The position numbers and the translations under genes are program-made. Positions 1,971-60,921 of a DNA stretch of 64,000 nucleotides are shown here, piece by piece; position 1 is the first letter of the stretch, and each line of letters begins with the position of its first letter. The notes under the pieces were generated by a model. It saw only the letters and a program-made list of their open reading frames with translations, was not told the DNA's origin and made no database searches. The stretch lies in the NCBI GenBank assembly GCA_026389585.1, contig JAPLHP010000036.1, positions 41,366 to 105,365 on the forward strand, in the 5' to 3' direction. This DNA comes from Chloroflexota bacterium. Lineage in GTDB: Bacteria > Chloroflexota > Dehalococcoidia > UBA2247 > RBG-13-53-26.

Positions 1971-2456
1971 CTAACCTAATCCTCCAGCATCAGGGACAAA
2001 CGATCCTAAAAGTGAATAGTCCTCGTAACTGTCTACCAATCCCTTCCGCACTGGATTATTGAAGATGTACAGGGCTACATCCTGTAGTGCTTCTTCCTTC
2101 CTCAGAATATGGTCATAGTAACTTCTCTGCCATAGAGAATCACCATAAGCTTTCTTGAAGGCTACCCCACTCCTCTGCTTAAAGAGCTTCATGAATTTAG
2201 GTAAGGAGGAATCTTCCTTGCCAACGATTAGAAGATGAAGGTGATCGGGCATAAAGCAGTAGGCATAAACACTGAACCCAGCTCGTCTGGATGTCTCTTC
2301 AAGAGCAGGGAGGAGGCTATTGACAATGTTCTTGTGTTTGAAGTAGGGCTTCCCCTGTTCTGTAGAGCAAGTTATAAAATAGGCATAAGAACCGGCGTAG
2401 TCAAAGCTTCTAAGCCTCGGTGAGGAATTTCGTCGTCTCAAGTGATCTTTGATCAT
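1971..2456 (-). CDS. REP-associated tyrosine transposase (RAYT, IS200/IS605-like Y1 transposase TnpA_REP)
   Basis: 161 aa. HxH-type motif (PDHLHLLI) and C-terminal Y-containing region typical of Y1 HUH transposases. Flanked on both sides by REP-like palindromic repeats. Confidence 0.75.
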   Translation of the reverse strand: MIKDHLRRRNSSPRLRSFDYAGSYAYFITCSTEQGKPYFKHKNIVNSLLPALEETSRRAGFSVYAYCFMPDHLHLLIVGKEDSSLPKFMKLFKQRSGVAFKKAYGDSLWQRSYYDHILRKEEALQDVALYIFNNPVRKGLVDSYEDYSLLGSFVPDAGGLG

Positions 2457-4652: not shown

Positions 4653-6269
4653 TCATAGAGAATCATCCTTGAGCCTGCTGATAACTACTGGCAGAACAGG
4701 CAAAAGGTCGCTGGCCAGCATTCCCGCATCCCCCAGATCCTTTCTCACCAGCTCCCCGGCCTGGCTGTGAAGGAATACCCCTGCAACAGCAGCATCGAAG
4801 AGGCTGAGCCCCTGAGCTACCAATCCGGCGATCGCTCCGGCGAGCACATCTCCCGTCCCTGCTGAAGCCAGCCCCGGGTTCGCTGTGGGGTTGATCACCA
4901 TCCTGCCATCCGGAGCAGCCACTATAGTATAGGCTCCTTTGAGCACAATAGTTTTCTGCCATGAAACGGCTGCCTCCCTGGCCACGCTCAGCCGCCTGGA
5001 CTGGATTTCATCCACAGAGCGTCCAGTGAGCCTCGACATTTCCCCAGGATGCGGGGTGAGTACAGCATCGCAAGGCAGCTTTTGCCACCATTGGGATATC
5101 CCGGCCAATGTGTTGAGAGCATCCGCATCAAGAACCAGGGCAGGCAAGTCGGCCGAAGAAAAAAAGATTGTTTTCATAAACTCAACCACAGAAGGACTTT
5201 GGCCAGAGCCACACCCCAGGAGAAGGACATTATAGTTAGCCAGTGACGGCCGAATGGTCTCAAACGCATCAGCCGTCACAATTCCCGGCTCTGATTCCGG
5301 CAATGGAGCATAGATCACCTCTGTCAACTTCGAAGCCAGGATAGGCTGAAGGCTGCGAGCAGTGGCGAGCGTCACCAGTCCCGCCCCCACCCTGGCAGCG
5401 GCGGTGCAGGCAAGATAGACTGCGCCTATGTAATTGATTGAGCCGCCGACTACAAGAACCCTGCCAAAGGTACCCTTATTGGCATCCGGCAGGCGCTCTG
5501 GAAGCAACCCCCTTACCTTCTCGCGGGTAACCACCTCTGTGGGAATATCCTCTGCCAGCTTTGACGGTATGCCAATATCAGCCACAACAAGCCTGCCAAC
5601 CTTACCCGCACCGGGGAAAGCAAACAACCCATGCTTGGGATAACCAAGCGTCACAGTAAAATCAGCGGCAGGGCAAGCAGCATCAACAGCCCCTGTATCT
5701 GCATTAAGTCCTGAAGGAAGGTCAACAGCGACAAGCCGGAGATTTCTATTCTTCTCCTTCGCCTCCATCACCTTCAACAATGCCTGTTTGAAAACACCCT
5801 CTATGGGTCTCGTCTTGCCAGTACCGAAGAGGGCATCGACAACTACCTCTATTGATGGCAGCAGACTATCGAGGGCAGCCAGACTATCATGCTTGATAGC
5901 AGCTATGGTAGGAATGCTCCTCCTCTGAATAAGCTGATAATTGATATCGGGATCCGCACGCTTTCCCGGGAAGTAGACATAAACGTCGGCCCCCCAATCG
6001 TGCAGGTGCCGGGCAGCTACCAACCCATCACCACCGTTATTCCCCGGGCCTACCAGAACCAGGATACGGCGTCCGGCAACACCACCCAGCCACCCTCTCA
6101 CCTCCCGTGCCACAGCCAACCCGGCCTTTTCCATCAGCACTTCCGAGGGCAGACCTATTGCAGCAGCACGCTGCTCGATCTCTCGCATCTGCTCGCTGGT
6201 AACAACTTTCAAAATATTTCTCCTGAGCGACACAATTATATCAGATGGCTTTTCCCCGGGACAACGCAC
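4653..6269 (-). CDS. nnr: bifunctional NAD(P)H-hydrate epimerase / ADP-dependent dehydratase (YjeF N+C domains)
   Basis: 538 aa with YjeF_N (GPGNNGGDGLVAARHL) and carbohydrate-kinase-like YjeF_C (AGTGDVLAG) domains. True start may be slightly downstream of the first ATG. Confidence 0.8.
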   Translation of the reverse strand: MRCPGEKPSDIIVSLRRNILKVVTSEQMREIEQRAAAIGLPSEVLMEKAGLAVAREVRGWLGGVAGRRILVLVGPGNNGGDGLVAARHLHDWGADVYVYFPGKRADPDINYQLIQRRSIPTIAAIKHDSLAALDSLLPSIEVVVDALFGTGKTRPIEGVFKQALLKVMEAKEKNRNLRLVAVDLPSGLNADTGAVDAACPAADFTVTLGYPKHGLFAFPGAGKVGRLVVADIGIPSKLAEDIPTEVVTREKVRGLLPERLPDANKGTFGRVLVVGGSINYIGAVYLACTAAARVGAGLVTLATARSLQPILASKLTEVIYAPLPESEPGIVTADAFETIRPSLANYNVLLLGCGSGQSPSVVEFMKTIFFSSADLPALVLDADALNTLAGISQWWQKLPCDAVLTPHPGEMSRLTGRSVDEIQSRRLSVAREAAVSWQKTIVLKGAYTIVAAPDGRMVINPTANPGLASAGTGDVLAGAIAGLVAQGLSLFDAAVAGVFLHSQAGELVRKDLGDAGMLASDLLPVLPVVISRLKDDSL

Positions 6270-7007: not shown

Positions 7008-7224
7008 CAGGGTTATTATAAGCGCAATCGCTTATGACTGTCAACGCCTGCGCTCAGTAGCCAGGATAATATCGTGGTTTGTGCAATTTAATACTAGGAG
7101 TGTGTCCGAGTAATACCTATGCTGAGCGTGGGCGACCTTGATTTTTGACTTCTTCTAGGCACGGCCAACCTATTACTCAGACAGGCTCCTAGTGCCTGGT
7201 TGCACAAGTAAGCGTAGCAATCGA

Positions 7225-7460
7225 GATTCTTCGCTGCGCTCAGAATGACACAATGGCCAAGCAGAATGCCACCTAAGAGCCTGTCATCATGACAGTGGGC
7301 GACATGTTACCATGACGGTGGGCAATATGTCAGAATGACATGTGGTAGTTCTAAGATAATGACACCCATCAATGGTTCTGTGAAAATGTCACCCTGAGCC
7401 GAAGCCGAAGGGTCTCCCCTCACAAAGCGAATGACGCTTATTCTTGCAACTAAGCACTAG
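7225..7460. repeat. dispersed repeat family copy A (GATTCTTCGCTGCGCTCAGAATGACAC head, AATGACA-type tandem units, GTCACCCTGAGC...GCGAATGACGC tail)
   Basis: Shares head, internal tandem units and tail with 55764-55975. Head also present at 51577 and 60872. Confidence 0.7.
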
Positions 7461-22093: not shown

Positions 22094-23410
22094 CTATGTG
22101 GGAAGATTAGCCACAATCTGGTGGATGTTTCTCTGCATTGCGGGATCAGTAGAAACTACGCCGGCTATTCTATGATAGCCCCTGAGAATGGTGGAGTGGT
22201 CTCTGCCGCCAAGCAACTTGCCGATATCCTGCAGGGGGCAATTTGTCTTCTCTCGTACAAGGTAGATGGCAATCTGGCGCGCCATGGCTAATCGATTGTC
22301 TCTCTTACGGCCTTTCAGGGATTCTAAACTTATCTGGAAGTGGTCGGCCACTGCCTTCAATATCGATGCTGGGGTGGTAGCATATGAGCCTAAATTATCC
22401 GAAGGCATATCGCGCAGAGCCTGCTGCGCCAACTCCAGTGTAGGATGCTGCTGTGCCATCTTTGCATCGGCGATAAGCGCAGTCAGGGCTCCCTCTAGTT
22501 CCCTGATATTTCGCTGGCAGCGCTGGGCGATGAAATCAAATACAGCTTCGTCGATGACAACCTGCTGTTTCTCGGCTCTTGCGTGAAGGATGGCCAAACG
22601 TGTTTCCAGGTCTGGTGCTTCAACCTGGGCAATAAGCCCGCATTCGAGGCGGGAACACAAGCTGCTCTCCAAGGTAGTCATCGCCTTTGGAGGGCGATCG
22701 CTGGTGATAACCAACTGGCGGTCAGTGTCCTGCAGTTCATTGAAGGTGTGAAACAGTGTTTCCTGTGTCTGCGGTTTGCCAACCAAGAACTGGATGTCCT
22801 CTATGACGAGAATGTCAGCGTTCCTGAATTTGCTGCGAAACTCCTCTGTCTTTCTCTCCCTGATTGAACTTATGAACTCATTGGTAAATTGCTCACTGCC
22901 AGTATAAACGACCTTGAATCCGTTTTCGGAAGCTTCATTCCCTATCGCGTGTGAAAGATGGGTCTTTCCCAGACCAGATCCACCGTGGATGAAAAGCGGA
23001 TTGTACTGCCGCCCTGGCTCCTCAGATATTCCCAAGGCAGCAGCGTAGGCAAGACGGTTTGAACTCCCAACGACGAAGTTTTCGAAGGTATACCTCGGGT
23101 TGCCCACTGGTGGTGGCAGCTTCGATTGTGAGTGGTTCTGGCCCTGCCAGACAGAGTCCTGGTCCGGGCAGACCTGGAACAGAACCTCAACCTCATGCCC
23201 TACAAGGCTGATGAGCACCTTTATTACCAAAGAATGAAGACGCTTTTCCAGCCATTCCTTGGCGAAAGCGCTGGGAGTTCCAATTACAAATTGATTTCCT
23301 TGGTGACTGATCCCTACAGTGTCCTTTAGCCAGGTTTCGAAGTTGGCTTTGCTAACCTGAACCTGAAGGGCACCTTTGGCAGTCTCCCAAGTCTCTTTAG
23401 CTGTTTTCAT
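22094..23410 (-). CDS. dnaA: chromosomal replication initiator protein DnaA
   Basis: 438 aa, AAA+ Walker A GGSGLGKTHL, sensor motifs, C-terminal DnaA-box binding domain (LQDIGKLLGGRDHSTI). Confidence 0.95.
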   Translation of the reverse strand: MKTAKETWETAKGALQVQVSKANFETWLKDTVGISHQGNQFVIGTPSAFAKEWLEKRLHSLVIKVLISLVGHEVEVLFQVCPDQDSVWQGQNHSQSKLPPPVGNPRYTFENFVVGSSNRLAYAAALGISEEPGRQYNPLFIHGGSGLGKTHLSHAIGNEASENGFKVVYTGSEQFTNEFISSIRERKTEEFRSKFRNADILVIEDIQFLVGKPQTQETLFHTFNELQDTDRQLVITSDRPPKAMTTLESSLCSRLECGLIAQVEAPDLETRLAILHARAEKQQVVIDEAVFDFIAQRCQRNIRELEGALTALIADAKMAQQHPTLELAQQALRDMPSDNLGSYATTPASILKAVADHFQISLESLKGRKRDNRLAMARQIAIYLVREKTNCPLQDIGKLLGGRDHSTILRGYHRIAGVVSTDPAMQRNIHQIVANLPT

Positions 23411-24035
23411 ACCCCCCTTTATGGGCTAAAAAGTCTTGTTCTGCGACGTGAGGATTCGGAATTATTTAAGAAGCGAGAAATTACTGAACAAAGCCTTCTC
23501 CCCGAGGATGTGGCTGGATAAGTATAGAACTGCCCTCCTTGGGCTGGTCAAGGGCTTAACTTTATGTTGCGTTGCTCTTGAGGATTGGCCCCACTTATAT
23601 TTAGAAGGGTTGCCCCCGAAAAGCCTTTTATGAGTTTACAACCGTCCCTGTTTCCCAGGTCAAGGGGTTTACTTTATGTCTTGTTGGCTGATGTGAGATT
23701 CTCCCTGTAGTGACACACTCGATCTGTAAAATACCAACCAATGCCGTTTCATGTGTCAGCAAGTTGTTAGCAGCCTTGCTGCTAACAACGTTCCTGAGAC
23801 CTCTGCCTCGTCTATGCGTATCTTTGTGTGCTTGCACAGATATTTCACAAGGTTATTTGCGGTACCGGCATCAGCCTAGACTCCGCAATCCCGAGGTAAC
23901 GTGCCGACAACTTCCGGGTACCACTTGACAACCCCGTTTTCCCATGGTATTATGCAGTGCATAGTAGTATCAGCATAACAATACCCCTTCCCGGAGTCGC
24001 TGAGAGGAACGAGAAAGCAGACGAAATCGAGGTCA
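23411..24035. promoter_or_regulatory. dnaA upstream / divergent intergenic region: candidate oriC and promoters
   Basis: 625-bp gene-free region between divergent dnaA and PadR genes. Perfect palindrome TTGTTAGCAGCcttGCTGCTAACAA (~23761-23785). TTGACA-17-TATTAT promoter (~23925-23955) upstream of the PadR operon. Confidence 0.5.
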
Positions 24036-24440
24036 GTGAGCATGTGGGGAAACAAGAAGAACGTTGATGAGACAGAATCGGCTGACAAGAAGTTTCAGAA
24101 GGAGCTCGTTTCGGGTGTGGCTGCGCTGGTTCTCCTGAGCATCCTCAACGAGGCGAAGGAGCCCATGTACGGCTATCAGATTGCCAAGGTCATCGACGGA
24201 CAGGCAGAAGACGCGGCCGTGCTGAAGCAGGGAGCTCTCTATCCGGTCCTTCGATCACTGGAGAGCAGCGGGCTACTGGAAAGCCGCGTCGAACCGTCCG
24301 TCTCCGGGCCCCCGCGGCGGTACTACCAGATCACGGAGTTGGGTCGGGGCACACTGGCGCGCTGGCGGGAGATGTGGAACCAAATGAGAACCTTCGTGGA
24401 CACCGTGATGAAAGGAGAGGGCAATGATAAAGAGCGTTGA
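24036..24440 (+). CDS. PadR-family transcriptional regulator
   Basis: Winged helix MYGYQIAKVI...GALYPVLRSLESSGLLES typical of PadR. Confidence 0.85.
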   Translation: MSMWGNKKNVDETESADKKFQKELVSGVAALVLLSILNEAKEPMYGYQIAKVIDGQAEDAAVLKQGALYPVLRSLESSGLLESRVEPSVSGPPRRYYQITELGRGTLARWREMWNQMRTFVDTVMKGEGNDKER

Positions 24441-34169: not shown

Positions 34170-34493
34170 TCACTCCTTCAGAAGCTCCGGGTGATTCTGA
34201 CGCAGCCATCTTTCCACAGACTGACGGAGGGTCTTGGCCAGACCTAGCATCTCCCCTACTTCTTGTTCAGAAACCATACCGATCATCTCATAATCACTGA
34301 TATTGCGTTTCTTGCGAAGCTTATCCAGTTTCTCAATTGTTGCACCATCGAGATGCATGGTGAAGGCCAGGGACTGGATAGTCCAGTAATGGTGACCTTC
34401 TTGTGGTGCCCTGTAGCCGCTGGCAGCCAGAGCCGCCGTAGCAGACTGGAGGGCAGCGTTATACGCGGTAGCAAACCTCCTGTCTGCGCTCAA
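34170..34493 (-). CDS. HEPN-like / NTase-partner small protein (putative toxin of MNT-HEPN-type pair; motif degenerate)
   Basis: 107 aa all-helical. RKKRNISDY resembles but does not exactly match the HEPN Rx4-6H motif. Sits downstream of the nucleotidyltransferase gene in the classic MNT-HEPN order. Confidence 0.4.
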   Translation of the reverse strand: MSADRRFATAYNAALQSATAALAASGYRAPQEGHHYWTIQSLAFTMHLDGATIEKLDKLRKKRNISDYEMIGMVSEQEVGEMLGLAKTLRQSVERWLRQNHPELLKE

Positions 34494-34565
34494 GTCGTGT
34501 ATCTGGGCATCCGCCAGATCGCGATCAGCTACCGCCAGAGTCGGACGATCTCGCGACTACCTGTT

Positions 34566-35198
34566 TTATGTGTTCTTAACCGCCCGTTTTTCAACCAGTC
34601 TTGCAAGCTCACCTTCATCACCTATGAGAAAAATCTTATCACCCTCGAGTACTATCTTCAGGAAGTGATGGTTCTCCCGCATTTTCTGCTTGAATTCGGA
34701 GGTAGGGTAGACAACCGGATTTACCTCTCTTCCCAGCGTCTTTTGAGACGGACTGATGAGTGAGACGATTTCCGAAAAGGTTGTCTTGCCTATTACCATC
34801 ATATCTATATCACTTGTTCTTTGTTCCGCTCCGCTGGCGATGGAACCGAAGATAAAGGCAACCTGTATCTTTCGCGCCGCCGGTCCTAAACTTTGCCGTA
34901 GCACGTCCGCCACTCCGAACGTCTTGGTTACAATACTCTTAAGCTCTGCGTAAATGGGACAACTCTTGTTTGCCCGGTAATAAACTTGCCTTCCCTGCAC
35001 CTCGCGGCTGATGATGCCGGTGTCCGTCAGGTTTTTCAGCTCCCGCTGTACCGTTCCGCGACCAGTTTTAACGGCATCCAGTATTTGTTTCGTATAGAAG
35101 GAGCTATCTGTTTGGCCGTAAAGAAATGCCAGGACTGCCTGCCGGGTTTTGCCGAAAAGGCCGCTGCATAATGAACTATCAGTCATATTCTTACCCAT
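34566..35198 (-). CDS. winged-HTH + minimal nucleotidyltransferase (MNT) fusion protein
   Basis: N-terminal ArsR-like wHTH (GKTRQAVLAFLY...GTVQRELKNLTDTGII), then NTase motif FGSIASG...SDIDMMV. Confidence 0.7.
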   Translation of the reverse strand: MGKNMTDSSLCSGLFGKTRQAVLAFLYGQTDSSFYTKQILDAVKTGRGTVQRELKNLTDTGIISREVQGRQVYYRANKSCPIYAELKSIVTKTFGVADVLRQSLGPAARKIQVAFIFGSIASGAEQRTSDIDMMVIGKTTFSEIVSLISPSQKTLGREVNPVVYPTSEFKQKMRENHHFLKIVLEGDKIFLIGDEGELARLVEKRAVKNT

Positions 35199-35245
35199 TC
35201 AGGGTATTATCTTACCCATTTTGGGTAACAAGGTCAAGTATTAGA
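35199..35245 (-). promoter_or_regulatory. promoter/operator of MNT operon
   Basis: Minus-strand TTGACC-17-TAAGAT with palindrome TTACCCAAAATGGGTAA between the -35 and -10. GGGTAAG repeated at the start codon. Confidence 0.5.
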
Positions 35246-35462
35246 CACCCCCTGCTTTTTTCAGCCGCGCCGATGTAGGACTTCCCCAGGCCTACCACAT
35301 CAGCAATGAAGGCTCCGCCAGGCTGGTATCGGGGCCATCCTGGCCATGGATGATAGGAGCCTGAAAGCCCGGTTGAGGCAGGCAAACGCCCTGGGACTGC
35401 CTCAGGCTATCATTTTGGCAAAGAAGAGGTAAGATCAGGCAGCGATACTGAGAGGCATGGGG

Positions 35463-39210: not shown

Positions 39211-41976
39211 CTACCATGGCCGCATCAATGCTTCCCTCTTCGCAGCTCCGCTCAAGACCTGGGCACAGGACTCCCAGTCTGTGCGCTCGATTTTCTGATA
39301 ACGGATCTCGAACGGGTGCTTCTCAGGAACGGCATCAATGATGCGCTTGGCTTGCTCCTCCTCACCGATAGCAACGTCAATCCAGACATCTTCAAGTACG
39401 TCAGGAATCTGCCCAAACAGGCTAAATATACTCTGAAGCCTAATGGACAATAATTGGTGAACGCGATCCTCGACAGATCCCAAGTAGCGCATGTTGTAGA
39501 CGTATACAATATCGTTGAGCTGCCCGATACGCTGTATCCTACCTTTGCGTTGTTCGAGACGCGTGGGATTCCATGGAAGGTCCAGGTTGATGAGCGTGCC
39601 GAGTCTCTGAAGGTTCAGCCCCTCAGATGCGGCGTCAGTCCCGAGCAGGAGGCGGATCTGCCCATTACGCACGCCAGCCTTAATCTCCTCCCGGTCGACC
39701 GGCGTGAATGAGCCGTCCTTCCACATGCCGGATTTACCGCTGCCTGCGTAAATAGCGATTGGCTCGTCGGGGAAGTCAAGGACGAGTTCTTTGGCCAGCC
39801 ACTGCACTGAATCATAGTACTGGCTGAAGACGATGCACCCCTTATCGAGCCAGCTTCGCCCCCGGAGGCAATCAAGGACTACGGAGTACTTGGGGTCTCG
39901 CTCCTGATTGGCTTCAAGCGCCTTGACGAATCTTTCGAGCAATACCCGCTCCTCATCGGTCAGAGTCTTTAACGTGCTCAGGGATGCGGCAGGATTCTCA
40001 TCCTCGCTCTCCGCGTCCGAATCCAAGGTGAACGAGCCGAGGTCTCGCCACGACGCCAGCATGGTCTCGGCTGTGGCTTTGCCTGCCGCGATACTGCTGC
40101 CCACCCGGCGCAGGAGGAGCGTGCGAAGAAAACCTGAGCCCTTCATGCGGGCACCAAGCTGCCGACAGAACTCCTCAGCCAGTTGGTATGCATCTCTGAG
40201 GAAGAGGGGTAAGCGGATGGCATCCTCGTCGCGATCCCCTAGAAGTTCGACACGGATCGGTTTTAGGTACGGCTCGCCGGTTTCAGGGTCGATTGTCTCC
40301 TCAAGATACTTGCGGCTCCGCCGTACGATATGGCGGATGAACGGATTATGCTGGTCAACAAAACGAGGGAACATGGCGTGCACACGGGCCTTGTCGGGAG
40401 GATTAAGACGGTCCCAATCGCTGCCGCCGGCAGACACTTCCATGTCGGTCATTCCCAGCGACCGACGCAGGATCTCGAAATCTCGATGCTCGGAGGATGG
40501 GGGTAATGGTGTGCGGACCCATTGCCACATGTCCAGTTCATCCTCCAGCTGTCTCGCCGTGCCCAGTACCAGCGGCAGGGCTCTTTCGGCATGGTGCCAC
40601 TCACTCCATGCGCCACCAAGGACAGCCTCGCTACCACGGCTCAGGATGTCAAGGAGATCCCAAGCCTCCACAGGGCGGATCTGAACGGGTGTCGCAGTCG
40701 CCAGGAGCATGCTCTTGGTGTGCTTTGACAGTTCATAGAGGAATTGAAGCAAGTTGTTCGGATCAGGTTTCTCCCCGTCACGACCTTCGCCCAAGTTTCG
40801 ACGGCGGGCGTTGTGTGCCTCGTCAACGATGATGCATTCATAGTCAAGGTGTTTGAGGTGCTCAGAATCCTCGCACTGAAAGACGGCCCTTGAAGTAGGA
40901 ACAATGCCAACGCGCCGCGGACAATTGCGTATTGCCTGGGGACCAACAGAAGGGTACTCGACACCGCGCTCATCCACCCATTGCTTCCCTGTCCATACGG
41001 CGGAGGGCATGTCAAGCAGGTCGTTGAGCTCATCCCGCCACTGCCAGACAAGCGCTTTCGGTGCGAGCACCAGGATTGGTTTGGTGCTGCATAGGGCCAT
41101 CAGCTCAGCCGCCATGGCGAGCTGAATGGTCTTGCCAAGGCCGACCTGGTCGGCGAGAACAAATCGCGCTCCTCCGGGGCTATTGAGATGTGCATCGAAC
41201 GCCAGCTTCACGAAGAACTTCTGGTGCTCCCAGAGACCCGCCTGCTGACGATAGACCGATGCCTCGATAAAGACCGATGCAGGTGTTGGAGCCACTGGCA
41301 ACGTGCCTGAGGGCCTCGCCCAGTCCTCCACCGAACTTATGACAGAGCGTTTGCTGAGGCGAGCGACATCTTCGATGACAAATTCCGCAAGCGGCACCGC
41401 GGCATGGTGAGTCCATAGGGCATCAAACTCTTCTTGGACCCAGGCCACAGCCTCCGGCGATGAGTCTTCCCACAGAAGTTCGTAATTCAGTGTCCATGCT
41501 GACCGTGATTCATTGACGCTGCCCAAGAAGGCAGTGCGACTCCCATCAGCAAGCATGATTACCCCGGCCTTGCCGTGAACGAGCCCGAAGTACTCATCCG
41601 GGAGCACTCTCACTTGTAGCTTCCCGCTGCGCAGGAACTCGTGAAGACGCGAAAAGCGGTTACGAGTTGCCTCTCCCCCAGATTCGACCAGCGTCTCGGG
41701 ACGCGAGCTACACCACTCCTGTCGAACGGCTGCAGCGGCGGCTCGAGCTGTGGCAACGTCTTGAGGTCGCAGCCCCGAGTTGCACACGATGCGTACAAGT
41801 CCGGTCACGCTCTCAATGGCTTCGCCAGCCACCTCAAGGATAGATCCGGAGAAGTATCCGGCGATGCGGTCATAAGCTTGCGCACCATGCAGGCGGTCTG
41901 TGAAGAATGACCGGTCCAGTCGTTGCCGCCTGGAGGAAAAACGCCGAATTTGGCTGTGGGCAACAGGGTCGTTCAT
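39211..41976 (-). CDS. PLD-family nuclease domain fused to SNF2/DEAD-like helicase
   Basis: N-terminal HKD motif (HGKAGVIM...GSVNES). Helicase motifs: Walker A GLGKT, DEAH box IIVDEAHNARR, C-terminal helicase motif LLLGTDAASEGLNLQ, motif VI QRKGRIQRIGQ. Start taken at MNDPVAHSQ. Confidence 0.8.
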   Translation of the reverse strand: MNDPVAHSQIRRFSSRRQRLDRSFFTDRLHGAQAYDRIAGYFSGSILEVAGEAIESVTGLVRIVCNSGLRPQDVATARAAAAAVRQEWCSSRPETLVESGGEATRNRFSRLHEFLRSGKLQVRVLPDEYFGLVHGKAGVIMLADGSRTAFLGSVNESRSAWTLNYELLWEDSSPEAVAWVQEEFDALWTHHAAVPLAEFVIEDVARLSKRSVISSVEDWARPSGTLPVAPTPASVFIEASVYRQQAGLWEHQKFFVKLAFDAHLNSPGGARFVLADQVGLGKTIQLAMAAELMALCSTKPILVLAPKALVWQWRDELNDLLDMPSAVWTGKQWVDERGVEYPSVGPQAIRNCPRRVGIVPTSRAVFQCEDSEHLKHLDYECIIVDEAHNARRRNLGEGRDGEKPDPNNLLQFLYELSKHTKSMLLATATPVQIRPVEAWDLLDILSRGSEAVLGGAWSEWHHAERALPLVLGTARQLEDELDMWQWVRTPLPPSSEHRDFEILRRSLGMTDMEVSAGGSDWDRLNPPDKARVHAMFPRFVDQHNPFIRHIVRRSRKYLEETIDPETGEPYLKPIRVELLGDRDEDAIRLPLFLRDAYQLAEEFCRQLGARMKGSGFLRTLLLRRVGSSIAAGKATAETMLASWRDLGSFTLDSDAESEDENPAASLSTLKTLTDEERVLLERFVKALEANQERDPKYSVVLDCLRGRSWLDKGCIVFSQYYDSVQWLAKELVLDFPDEPIAIYAGSGKSGMWKDGSFTPVDREEIKAGVRNGQIRLLLGTDAASEGLNLQRLGTLINLDLPWNPTRLEQRKGRIQRIGQLNDIVYVYNMRYLGSVEDRVHQLLSIRLQSIFSLFGQIPDVLEDVWIDVAIGEEEQAKRIIDAVPEKHPFEIRYQKIERTDWESCAQVLSGAAKREALMRPW

Positions 41977-51196: not shown

Positions 51197-51576
51197 GTTG
51201 CAAGTAAGCCTCCAGTTGAAATTGTGTTGATCTTGAACTAGTGATGACCTGTGTTAGGGGTCGGTTGCGCCTACACGCAGGACATTGAAGTCCATCCTCG
51301 GGCTTCTATGAGTTGACAAGACCACCCCACCAAGTGCATCCATTAGGAAGTCCTTGTATATTGGCATGCCATATTCCACATCGTCACGCGCTGTCTCTCA
51401 AGAGATGCTCCTTTCGGAGCAGCGACAGGGTCATTGGGTAATGCCAGTCTTTGGATGAAACAGGCTTCCGCAGGCTGGGTGTTGACCAGAAGGAGACAGA
51501 TTTGATCCTAGAAGAGATTACTGGGTAAGCCGAAATACGTGGATTCAGAAGCATAACGTTCTACATCCCCCACTGA

Positions 51577-51690
51577 GATTGCTTCGCTGCGCTCGCAATG
51601 ACACCGGCGGCTAACCCGCAATGACACCAGCGGCCAACCGGAATGACACGGCACACAAACCCCTGAGCCATAAGCGAGAAGAAATACGAT
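51577..51690. repeat. dispersed repeat family copy C (head plus three ~22-bp GCAATGACACCGGCGGCTAACC units)
   Basis: GATTGCTTCGCTGCGCTCGCAATGACAC head, then tandem units as in 55764-55975. Confidence 0.65.
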
Positions 51691-53489: not shown

Positions 53490-53629
53490 AGCAGCCGTTC
53501 CTGTCACTTCAGGGCGGCGACGACTTTATTGGTTTGTCTTTCTAAGGCTTCCAAGGAAGACTCGTTGGTGATAGTGAAGTCTGCCATGGCGATGGGCCCA
53601 CCTTTGTTGAGCTCCTGTATCTCCATCGC
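53490..53629 (-). pseudogene. diverged remnant of the 3' end of the UPF0200 kinase gene (att-like scar)
   Basis: Encodes MEIQELNKGGPIAMADFTITNESSLEALERQTNKVVAALK, ~88% nt identical to the 3' end of 58694-59236 including 14 bp past the stop. Starts right at the AbiEii stop. Confidence 0.7.
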
Positions 53630-55679: not shown

Positions 55680-55763
55680 TTACGGGTTACGGCTCAGGGC
55701 TGCGATGACTTTATTGGTTTGCCTTTCCAGGGCTTCTAGAGAGGATTCGTTGGTGATAGTCGA
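55680..55763 (-). pseudogene. second remnant of UPF0200 kinase gene 3' end
   Basis: Encodes ...TITNESSLEALERQTNKVIAALSRNP. Closer to the 53490 remnant than to the intact gene. Confidence 0.65.
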
Positions 55764-55975
55764 GATTGCTTCGCTGCGCTCACAATGACACCAGCGGCTA
55801 ACTGCAATGACACTGCGGCTAACCAGCAATGACACCGGCGGCCAACCAGCATGACACGGTGACCAACCGGAATGACACAGTGGGCAATATGCCACCATGA
55901 CACTCATGCAGTTTGTCACCCTGAGCGAAGGCGAAGGGTCTCCCCTCACAAAGCGAATGACGCCTATTCCTGCAT
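55764..55975. repeat. dispersed repeat family copy D (longest tandem array)
   Basis: GATTGCTTCGCTGCGCTCACAATGACAC head, ~6 tandem 21-23-bp CAATGACACNGCGGCTAACC units, GTCACCCTGAGCGAAGGCGAAGGGTCTCCCCTCACAAAGCGAATGACGCCTATTCCTGCA tail shared with copy A. Confidence 0.7.
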
Positions 55976-55991
55976 CCAGGCACCAGGCGTC

Positions 55992-58659: not shown

Positions 58660-58693
58660 TTGGCCTCCTTGTTTCCTCAGGCAGCCGTTCCTG

Positions 58694-59236
58694 TCACTTC
58701 AGGGCTGCAACGACTTCTCTGGTCTGTCTTTCCAGGGCTTCTAAAGAAGATTCGTTGGTGATGGTGAAGTCTGCCATGGCGATGGGCCCACCTTTGCTGA
58801 GCTCTTCGATCTCCGCCATGTCCCGGCCGGCAGCTTCATCAAGCGTCAGGGGGCGGATGGGCCTTTTCGTCAACCTCTGATATCGTGTCTGGGGAGAGGC
58901 CCAAACTGCCACCACGGTAAAACGGCCGCCGTAGCGGTCCTTCAACAGAGTGTATTCTTCCCATGAGTAGAGGCCGTCCACAACGACATCAGCCGATTTG
59001 AGGAGGCGATCAATCCTGGGCAGGCTGAGCCTGGCATAAGCTGACATTCCATGCTCTTTTCTGAGTTGTCCCCTGACATACCGTTCGTTTTTCTCGTTCA
59101 GCTCGAGCCCTCTTTCCCTGACCTCTTCATCGGTAATATCGCCGAACCTGACTCTCACAAAGCCGCTATTTTCAAATACTCTGGCTACCTCTGATTTGCC
59201 CGAGCCTGCCATACCAACAATCGATACCACTTTCAT
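58694..59236 (-). CDS. UPF0200-family P-loop nucleotide kinase-like protein (archaeal dephospho-CoA-kinase-like)
   Basis: 180 aa, P-loop VGMAGSGKSEV. Its 3' end has diverged copies at 53490-53629 and 55680-55763. Confidence 0.6.
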   Translation of the reverse strand: MKVVSIVGMAGSGKSEVARVFENSGFVRVRFGDITDEEVRERGLELNEKNERYVRGQLRKEHGMSAYARLSLPRIDRLLKSADVVVDGLYSWEEYTLLKDRYGGRFTVVAVWASPQTRYQRLTKRPIRPLTLDEAAGRDMAEIEELSKGGPIAMADFTITNESSLEALERQTREVVAALK

Positions 59237-60215: not shown

Positions 60216-60315
60216 GTCCCCTCCCTTTCTCCTCGTGGACTCTGGTACGCTCCCCGAAGATCAATCGTGCTCTGCATCTTACAGGATATGTTCTGAATAT
60301 GTCAAGGAAGCCGCT

Positions 60316-60801: not shown

Positions 60802-60871
60802 CGTTCGCGCCCTCCCTGCTGAAGTATTGACATGACCGGTGCAACCAGGCACCAGTCAGCGTAACAACCGA

Positions 60872-60921
60872 GATTCTTCGCTGCGCTCAGAATGACACCC
60901 ATTTCTGCCACCAAGCACTAG
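60872..60921. repeat. dispersed repeat family copy E (50-bp miniature: head + tail only)
   Basis: GATTCTTCGCTGCGCTCAGAATGACAC joined to ...CCAAGCACTAG, matching the head and tail of copy A (7225-7460). Confidence 0.6.

Follow-up and report, generated by a model that had tools for sequence, protein, structure and literature searches.

Several kinds of small bacterial repeat bear comparison with the one described here. Repetitive extragenic palindromic (REP) elements, bacterial interspersed mosaic elements (BIMEs) and REPINs, with their REP-associated tyrosine transposase (RAYT), form one such system (PMC2817692, PMC3333891, PMC3116915), and the single-strand HUH/Y1 enzymes of REP/RAYT and IS200/IS605 provide a point of comparison for mobilisation (PMC3333891, PMC6006769). 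The CGTC-tagged REP superfamily, which includes dRS3 of Neisseria and RPE-4 and RPE-6 of Rickettsia, comprises repeats of 20–40 bp with the tag CGTC or its variants TGTC (frequent) and CCTC, an 8–9-bp stem whose first positions are complementary A,T, a loop of 4–5 nt and a short unpaired tail with the consensus CCA; these repeats are mostly extragenic, frequently form inverted dimers, lie in some cases within genes, occur in several phyla and apparently have no dedicated transposase (Di Nocera et al. 2013, BMC Genomics 14:522, PMC3733652). Miniature inverted-repeat transposable elements (MITEs) such as Nezha, Correia/NEMIS and RUP are a further comparison (reviewed in PMC3184786). Here we describe four copies (A, B, D and E) of a dispersed repeat in a stretch of 64,000 nucleotides, hereafter the window, from a Chloroflexota bacterium of the Dehalococcoidia (GenBank assembly GCA_026389585.1, contig JAPLHP010000036.1, positions 41,366–105,365 of the forward strand). 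We find that head and tail of the repeat belong to a single hairpin type, set in opposite orientations and with compensating changes between their stems. The closest published class is the CGTC/TGTC-tagged REP superfamily, and the hairpin does not constitute a new class. The repeat is real, strain-variable and ordinary in kind; what is unusual is how widely its 27-nt core is spread and how well that core is conserved. The reading we favour, and consider rather likely, is that the four copies are non-coding, non-autonomous, selfish mosaic repeats of a REP/BIME/MITE-like kind in which the array changes by slippage.

A preliminary description of the window had proposed a previously unnoted family of four intergenic copies with a shared 27-bp head, tandem units of about 22 bp in the longer copies and a tail common to A and D. 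The heads, units and tails are all present as described, but the copies are wider than the boundaries first drawn (7225–7460, 51577–51690, 55764–55975 and 60872–60921). The head pattern TTCGCTGCGCTCNNAATGACAC has exactly four matches in the window, all on the plus strand (at 7230, 51583, 55770 and 60877; 0.03 expected by chance), the heads starting at 7223 in A, 51575 in B, 55762 in D and 60870 in E; the 27-nt form is exact in A and E only, B and D carrying a 28-nt variant, GATTGCTTCGCTGCGCTC(GC/AC)AATGACAC. Tandem Repeats Finder returned arrays of period 21–23 in A, B and D (7282–7345, 51594–51649 and 55783–55880), ten of the 11 occurrences of the octamer AATGACAC in the window (1.7 expected) fall within the four copies, and the tails of A (7387–7448) and D (55914–55974) are 93.5% identical over 62 nt. 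All four copies do lie outside confident genes, and the suspicion that open reading frames (ORFs) across the repeat are spurious was justified, the mechanically found ORF 55680–55949(-) being the "CHCERSEAI" translation of the repeat in copy D. The head of D adjoins a 76-nt piece of the 3' end of an AAA_18 kinase-like gene (55694–55769); this 3' end is found three times in the window (53491–53624, 55694–55769 and 58681–58814), the intact gene lying at 58694–59236 and the other two being orphan fragments. The copies and their parts are as follows, bit scores and E-values being those of the covariance model introduced below.

7189–7460: copy A, whole
7189–7204, minus strand: copy A, left terminal 16-mer, TGCAACCAGGCACTAG on the minus strand, inverted relative to 7445–7460
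7223–7249, minus strand: copy A, head, 27-nt hairpin GTCATTCTGAGCGCAGCGAAGAATCTC with the tag T/GT before it (48.4 bits, E 1.4e-8)
7250–7387, plus strand: copy A, internal array of about 6–7 AATGACAC-type units of 20–25 nt
7388–7416, plus strand: copy A, tail hairpin GTCACCCTGAGCCGAAGCCGAAGGGTCTC, inverted, with a CCCT/AGGG stem (33.8 bits, E 2.2e-5)
7417–7444, plus strand: copy A, tail module CCCTCACAAAGCGAATGACGCTTATTCT, with the second GAATGAC direct repeat
7445–7460, plus strand: copy A, right terminal 16-mer TGCAACTAAGCACTAG
about 51538–51683: copy B, whole, degenerate tail included
51538–51574, plus strand: copy B, left module CGTGGATTCAGAAGCATAACGTTCTAC..., which recurs beside a head in strain contig L272
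51575–51602, minus strand: copy B, head, 28-nt hairpin GTCATTGCGAGCGCAGCGAAGCAATCTC (30.5 bits, E 1.2e-4)
51594–51649, plus strand: copy B, tandem units of period 23, 2.5 copies (Tandem Repeats Finder)
51659–51683, plus strand: copy B, degenerate remnant of a tail hairpin (ACCCCTGAGCCATAAGCGAGAAG), read directly and below the threshold of the covariance model
55762–55986: copy D, whole
55762–55789, minus strand: copy D, head, 28-nt hairpin GTCATTGTGAGCGCAGCGAAGCAATCTC (33.8 bits, E 2.3e-5)
55783–55905, plus strand: copy D, tandem units of period 21–22, at least 4.5 copies, decaying toward the tail
55915–55942, plus strand: copy D, tail hairpin GTCACCCTGAGCGAAGGCGAAGGGTCTC (38.8 bits, E 1.8e-6)
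55943–55986, plus strand: copy D, tail module and terminal 16-mer TGCATCCAGGCACCAG (55971–55986)
60840–60921: copy E, whole
60840–60855, plus strand: copy E, left 16-mer TGCAACCAGGCACCAG, with the stem as in A and the central 6 nt inverted
60870–60896, minus strand: copy E, head hairpin, identical to the head of A (48.4 bits)
60897–60921, plus strand: copy E, deletion junction (GAATGACAC|C) and right 16-mer TGCCACCAAGCACTAG

Taken as its reverse complement, the head is a 27–28-nt hairpin of the form (T/C)GTC-A-stem-GAGCGNAGCGA(A)-stem'-TCTC. On the minus strand it reads GTCA-TTCT-GAGCGCAGCGA-AGAA-TCTC in A and E and GTCA-TTG(C/T)-GAGCGCAGCGAA-GCAA-TCTC in B and D, while the tail on the plus strand reads GTCA-CCCT-GAGCGAAGGCGA-AGGG-TCTC; the common frame is GTCA...GAGCG.AGCGAAG...TCTC, with compensating stems TTCT/AGAA, TTGC/GCAA and CCCT/AGGG. 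A check of the repeat against covariance models had been suggested, and it places head and tail in one hairpin family: with a model trained solely on sequences of unrelated viral contigs from IMG/VR, the 64 kb yield six sites and no more, namely the four heads (minus strand) and the two tails (plus strand), with E from 1.4e-8 to 1.2e-4, and the next match has E = 0.36. That match (40448–40476, GTCATTCC...AGGATCTC) and another at 24129–24164 (GTTCTCCTGAGC[12]GCGAAGGAGCCC, E 0.9) may be decayed copies or may be due to chance.

The core of the hairpin consists of an unpaired tag (T/C)GTC, a covarying stem of 5 bp, a purine-rich centre GA-GC-GNA-GC-GA(A) and an unpaired 3-nt tail, CTC, so that five and two Watson-Crick pairs are split by a GA/GA(A) internal loop and closed by a loop of 3–4 nt. 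Across 177 instances the tag at positions -9 to -6 is T (0.68) or C (0.23), G (0.85), T (0.91) and C (0.85), all six copies in the window reading TGTC, and the stem opens with A (0.84) followed by T (0.79), the tails in the window reading A,C. Sequence information is limited to about 28 positions (-9 to +18 around the core, T/C-GTC-A-T-...-GAGCGNAGCGAAG-...-TCTC). Among the 27-mers 97.5% of cells are paired, compared with 89% in shuffled sets, a figure reached by 0 of 500 shuffles; pair 6–22 takes all four Watson-Crick forms (UA 7, CG 6, GC 2, AU 1, together with UG 1); and the stem is perfect (5/5) in 73% of 381 instances, with at least nine stem classes. We suspect that the hairpin CATTCTGAGCGCAGCGAAGAATC is stabilised by tandem G.A pairs and a GNA loop. 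A hammerhead-like reading (GUC...CUGA...GAA) was dropped, given that the 28-nt class has no CUGA and that there is no three-helix junction. At the gathering threshold Rfam finds two tRNAs only in the window, and it returns nothing on the repeats at E <= 10 and nothing on 12 viral loci at E <= 1.

Reversed head, units, forward tail and recurrent modules, the make-up by which a BIME is recognised, are found in A, B and D and in 13 metagenome contigs, which were recovered with a 25-mer from the A/D tail module and carry the same composite in different flanks. The smallest of these composites measure about 150 nt and have a single unit (L268, L274), and the spacer between head and tail ranges from 11 to 181 nt. 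Copy A ends in inverted 16-mers, CTAGTGCCTGGTTGCA and TGCAACTAAGCACTAG (7189–7204(-) and 7445–7460(+), at most two mismatches), and these, with the inverted hairpins, mean that the preliminary description was mistaken in finding no terminal inverted repeats. The terminal motif TGCAACCAGGCACYAG occurs five times in the window, at copy boundaries only; ends like those of A are also found in L267–L276 and are absent or rearranged in B, which has no 16-mer, and E, where the 16-mers are in direct orientation. As a whole, copy A is a long imperfect palindrome (-107.5 kcal/mol, z = -5.0). Beside these ends, a 14-nt palindrome reads GTGC-CTGGTT-GCAC left of A (7193–7206) and GTGC-AACCAG-GCAC at E (60841–60854), the stem and flanks being shared and the loop flipped, which points to a local inversion of a small hairpin.

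Such ends raise the possibility that the composite, at about 150–280 nt, is an ordinary MITE moved by the DDE transposase of an insertion sequence (IS) elsewhere in the genome, through its 16-nt terminal inverted repeats and a CTAG (IS5-like) target duplication, with hairpins and units as cargo. This account partly overlaps with the favoured one, and we regard it as possible though well short of probable. The ends of copy A bound the 13 composites as well, in unrelated flanks, and most copies are flanked by CTAG...CTAG. A check for target-site duplications had been suggested; because CTAG is a palindrome, these flanks are ambiguous and can be read as a duplicated target or as belonging to the inverted repeat. 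One copy, L267, has CTGG at both ends in direct rather than inverted orientation. An unrelated MITE of 91 nt (7098–7188), distinct from copy A and with 18-nt terminal inverted repeats (GAGTGTGTCCGAGTAATA / TATTACTCAGACAGGCTC), has inserted at the same CTAG at the left edge of copy A, duplicating it (7094–7097 and 7189–7192), and is absent from L273. The MITE account, however, is met by no IS with matching ends and no empty site for the composite, it is at odds with the direct 16-mers of E and their absence from B, and it leaves unexplained both the bare 27-nt hairpin found alone across phyla and the precise 27-nt indel described below.

Near-identical strain contigs (L121, L272 and L273), in which the same loci were recovered from independent assemblies, show how the composite varies. 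L273 carries the orthologue of locus A in flanks 97.5–98% identical to those of the window, but its array is shorter by a 21-nt unit, a 23-nt unit and a further 35 nt or so. At locus E the element in L272 is full-length, and 126 nt of it (units and tail hairpin) that are absent from the window and from L121 are bounded by two direct GAATGACAC repeats; because the 126 nt lie between these repeats, copy E derives from a longer element by deletion, through slippage or recombination between short repeats, in line with the internal deletion proposed for it at the outset. Among strains and loci the number of units ranges from 1 to about 7. As judged from these alignments, the internal array evidently grows and shrinks in unit-sized steps, and recombination or slippage between GAATGACAC direct repeats can evidently remove the whole interior to yield copy E. 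The preliminary description would have been abandoned had there been only these four copies and no polymorphism; with 13 more composites and unit-sized indels at the orthologous locus A, its dispersed family of variable unit number, resembling a MITE or minisatellite, holds. Its description was correct and its interpretation too narrow.

It had also suggested that the AATGACAC units might be iteron-like arrays binding a replication or regulatory protein, for which the period of about 21–23 bp, near two helical turns, and the excess of the octamer (11 against 1.7 expected) could be cited. The constant part of each unit, though, is the flank of the hairpin, GTGTCATT, followed by about 14 nt, and the octamer is a mere piece of that flank; the units thus form a length-variable array and do not look iteron-like. 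The spacers of A differ from those of B and D, copy number runs from 1 to about 7 among strains and loci and differs even between near-identical strains, tandem partial copies with different spacers stand upstream of the hairpin in unrelated phyla, and the neighbours are unrelated genes, with dnaA 15–38 kb away. We consider an iteron array very improbable. The dnaA gene itself (22094–23410(-)) lies where the GC skew changes sign, near 22–24 kb, and the region around it (22094–24000) is probably the chromosomal origin region; the heads on its two sides share one strand, and the composites hold hairpins in both orientations. The window also carries a CysRS gene, whose best named relatives are in the Dehalococcoidia.

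Larger differences between the strains were also seen. L272 1081–9072 corresponds to window 35443–58671, about 8 kb against about 23 kb, the two being collinear at 34366–35443 and again from 58671 on; copies B and D both lie in the longer version, together with GmrSD, SNF2/PLD helicase, DUF1156 and DUF499 defence genes, and this stretch looks like a strain-variable island. In L121 (97% identical) a DUF4160/DUF2442 toxin-antitoxin-like pair of about 640 bp occupies 4868–5507, with nothing at window 60307–60309. A segment of L272 (9652–10147) considered as a filled site was rejected, as it reflects recombination between paralogous genes and not a clean insertion. Finally, L122 (872 kb, about 95% identical) is syntenic with the window over 17.3–29.9 kb only, and in that span it has no hairpin and no empty site.

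The hairpin is found far beyond this Dehalococcoidia genome. Its general pattern, GTCAN{3,5}GAGCGNAGCGAAGN{2,4}TCTC, occurs in at least 120 IMG/VR contigs, where roughly one match would be expected by chance (a rough estimate from the size of the collection and the 20 fixed bases), and the window-type head, with 25 fixed bases, in at least 120 stretches of GTDB genomes. Among the GTDB matches listed, the carriers belong to more than 12 phyla: within the Chloroflexota they include Dehalococcoidia, Anaerolineae, Chloroflexia and Ktedonobacterales, and beyond it Bacteroidota (including Hymenobacter isolates), Alpha-, Beta- and Gammaproteobacteria, Desulfobacterota, Acidobacteriota, Planctomycetota, Verrucomicrobiota, Nitrospirota, Latescibacterota, Binatia, Zixibacteria, Armatimonadota, Firmicutes (Clostridia) and the candidate phyla radiation (CPR; Uhrbacteria). 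REPs in general are marked by more than 100 copies per genome; the 64 kb of the source genome covered here hold six hairpins, and the Dehalococcoidia chromosome OZ220681.1 has at least five matches to one narrow pattern. In cultured collections copies are few and come from prophages of Helicobacter canis, genomes of gut phages and plasmids of Planktothrix and Calothrix. Most carriers are metagenome-assembled genomes. This last point is all that would suggest an assembly artefact, adapter contamination or chance similarity, an explanation already refuted by the recovery of the same loci in L121, L272 and L273; given in addition the chance expectation of 0.03 for four heads, the presence of the hairpin in isolate genomes and plasmids (Hymenobacter, Planktothrix, Calothrix and the Helicobacter canis prophages), its covarying stems and its in-frame insertions, we put the probability of such an error close to nil. 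One of the viral carriers, L015, also has an Acido-Lenti-1 RNA (Rfam RF01687, 59.9 bits) at 160–205.

The gene of a phage MuF-like protein in L124 differs from its 85%-identical relatives in L125 and L126 by exactly 27 nt, in frame, and comparison with these two reveals no target duplication at the insert. Elsewhere, then, the bare hairpin has every appearance of a discrete, insertable 27-nt unit. In bacterial genomes only 9% of hairpins lie deep inside long ORFs, compared with 60% of random positions; those inside ORFs occur in both orientations, with in-frame copies in phage genes. An inverted partner follows within 100 nt downstream in 30% of cases (1.3% in the background), a tandem partial copy of the 5' half stands upstream in 7% (1.1% in the background), and a Planktothrix plasmid holds an alternating, BIME-like array of hairpins. 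In a separate family of phage structural proteins (L279–L333, IMG/VR), a single hypervariable site at about residues 355–375 holds varied small palindromic inserts, among them the present hairpin, longer forms that share its outer arms GTCATTGC...GCAATCTC, hairpins of the GTAG type and CTCTCCCTCGACGGGAGAGG, and in some phages none; the site could be an insertion hotspot or one that needs a hairpin.

Placement also bears on the possibility that the hairpin is primarily a functional structure under selection, which might stabilise mRNA 3' ends, mark intercistronic processing sites, terminate transcription or bind a widely conserved protein, and which would owe its spread to usefulness and not to selfish mobility. 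Many genome copies lie 10–30 nt past a stop codon, and on viral contigs they either flank capsid-like genes or stand ahead of a ribosome-binding site with its start codon. All four heads in the window have their purine-rich strand on the strand of the flanking genes; the head of E stands on the transcribed strand and separates the AOR gene (stop codon at 60918) from the Fer4 gene that lies downstream in the same operon, a position kept in L121 and L272. A conserved core and covarying stem across phyla, the fact that diverged phage homologues have kept the hairpin at a single site and the report of REPs as RNA elements (PMC3733652) would also fit. Orientation relative to neighbouring genes, on the other hand, shows no strand bias (72 same and 85 opposite in genomes, 53 and 44 in viral contigs) and is mixed inside ORFs, while presence, absence and length vary between strains whose flanks are 97–98% identical; predicted stability is weak, and no Rfam family matches. 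On balance we think a primarily functional role improbable.

The window does contain a bona fide transposase of the REP type, a precedent for the favoured reading. A RAYT gene at 1971–2456(-) scores 110.7 bits against NCBIfam REP_Tyr_transpos (NF047646; cut-off 80) and 1.6e-13 against Pfam Y1_Tnp, and on either side of it stands a pair of hairpins of the GTAG type, GTAGGGACAGACCTNNAGGTCTGTCC (1785–1810/1854–1879 and 2466–2491/2547–2572), so that 1773–2583 is a textbook REPtron. Hairpins of this GTAG type also lie beside or inside the composite in L269, L272 and L276.

A full element consists, in order, of a terminal 16-mer, a linker, a reversed hairpin (the head), one to about seven half-units, a forward hairpin with a different stem (the tail), a tail module and an inverted 16-mer, each half-unit being the hairpin flank GTGTCATT with some 14 nt added. 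Under the favoured reading such elements would be selfish, spreading in trans through an enzyme able to recognise single-stranded DNA in its folded form; the 16-nt ends and CTAG flanks may also allow the composite as a whole to move like a MITE, and effects on the host, for example of the stem-loop in the AOR–Fer4 transcript, would be secondary. The unpaired tag, the hairpin with its conserved internal loop, the purine-rich strand and the lack of a duplication make the hairpin resemble a substrate of HUH/Y1 transposases, and by analogy with REP/RAYT and IS200/IS605 we tentatively name this class of enzyme, an assignment we hold to be rather doubtful. A bolder reading takes the 27–28-nt hairpin as a pan-bacterial, phage-borne, ultra-small mobile element, inserted bare and without target duplication by some widespread activity, candidates for which are a host or phage enzyme acting on single-stranded DNA and template switching at the hairpin; the half-unit arrays would be the footprint of that mechanism. 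This we consider unlikely.

Several results weigh against the favoured reading. The RAYT of the window is flanked by GTAG hairpins only and not by the GTCA hairpin, and since these are its own hairpins it cannot be assigned as the enzyme of the GTCA family; used as a tblastn query against about 260 other loci it matched only itself, and no RAYT adjoins the hairpin at the roughly 380 copies examined as loci rather than as whole genomes. No gene family recurs near the hairpin beyond common housekeeping genes in an all-against-all BLASTP comparison of 1,539 ORFs from 120 genome loci, nor is there a Y1-like ORF between hairpin pairs, the ORFs there being ordinary phage or host genes. One phage protein family keeps the hairpin at the same site in homologues only 60–85% identical, which could reflect long retention under selection rather than repeated insertion, and the core is near-identical across phyla, which is unusual for REPs and could instead point to a conserved function. 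By nearest-neighbour energy the small hairpin is only weakly stable (-0.6 to -4.6 kcal/mol, with z-scores short of significance), and its structure therefore rests on covariation. Finally, related strain contigs offer no clean empty site for the whole composite, so that its transposition as a unit is at most conjectural.

The repeat has practical consequences for annotation and strain comparison. The hairpin and its relatives create spurious ORFs and in-frame peptide inserts (…LRSAQGD…, …HSERSE…, …VIASEAKQS…) in genomes of many phyla and in phage contigs, which a model such as R1 could mask, and the composite is a hotspot of strain-level variation in its Dehalococcoidia lineage, through gain and loss of units, the 126-nt deletion and the insertion of a MITE at its edge. 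A conserved and widespread hairpin family with cultured carriers, among them Hymenobacter aerophilus DSM 13606 and Planktothrix agardhii NIES-204, is also a good substrate for finding the transposing activity of CGTC-type REPs. If the hairpin were indeed a bare pan-bacterial mobile element, it would be the most widely distributed family of REP type and a handle on the "orphan" CGTC-type REPs.

How new the family is can be judged from its closest relatives. The claim that it was previously unnoted stands for the exact sequence, found neither in Rfam nor in the searchable literature, where full-text searches with the core sequences, their reverse complements and their peptide translations gave chance primer matches only; it does not stand for the class, as the hairpin fits the published CGTC/TGTC-tagged REPs, although the core string and GTCA/TGAC are absent from PMC3733652 and its supplements. 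Like those REPs, it falls within 20–40 bp and has the tag TGTC (68%) or CGTC (23%), a stem mostly starting A,T and a short unpaired tail, and it is mostly extragenic, often in inverted dimers, occasionally within genes and spread over several phyla. It differs in having five Watson-Crick pairs, a GA/GA(A) internal loop, two more pairs and a 3-nt loop, in its CTC rather than CCA tail, in a centre that is almost invariant over far more phyla and in phage contigs too, and, in the window, in being embedded in arrays of variable numbers of half-units. If dRS3 reads CGTC-ATTCCCGC-GCAG-GCGGGAAT-CCA, as we take it to do, its modules align one by one with those of the hairpin, TGTC-ATTCTGAGC-GCA-GCGAAGAAT-CTC.

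With the REP/BIME systems the family shares small hairpins with an unpaired tag, alternating clusters with specific linkers and doublets that can fold into a larger hairpin. Its pairing of hairpins that differ in their stems is reminiscent of Y and Z, two types found in the BIMEs of E. coli. Unlike REP/RAYT, the hairpin carries the tag (T/C)GTC-A and not GTAG, the RAYT of the window keeps company with the GTAG family, and the hairpin is near-identical across phyla where REPs are usually lineage-specific. Conceptually very close, though compared by description only, are the SDR elements of heterocyst-forming cyanobacteria, reportedly described by Elhai and colleagues in 2008: they are said to be hairpins of 21–27 nt with compensatory changes, often in tandem heptameric repeats or in minitransposons, and nested, with mobility inferred from comparisons, and to be confined to cyanobacteria. 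Plasmids of the cyanobacteria Calothrix and Planktothrix do carry the hairpin described here; the tandem units of the window measure about 22 nt and not 7. MITEs, lastly, resemble the 150–280-nt composite in their terminal inverted repeats, non-coding interior, strong overall fold, many different flanks and deletion derivatives; what sets the composite apart from them is that its interior is a length-variable tandem array and that its core module also exists alone, as a unit of 27 nt.

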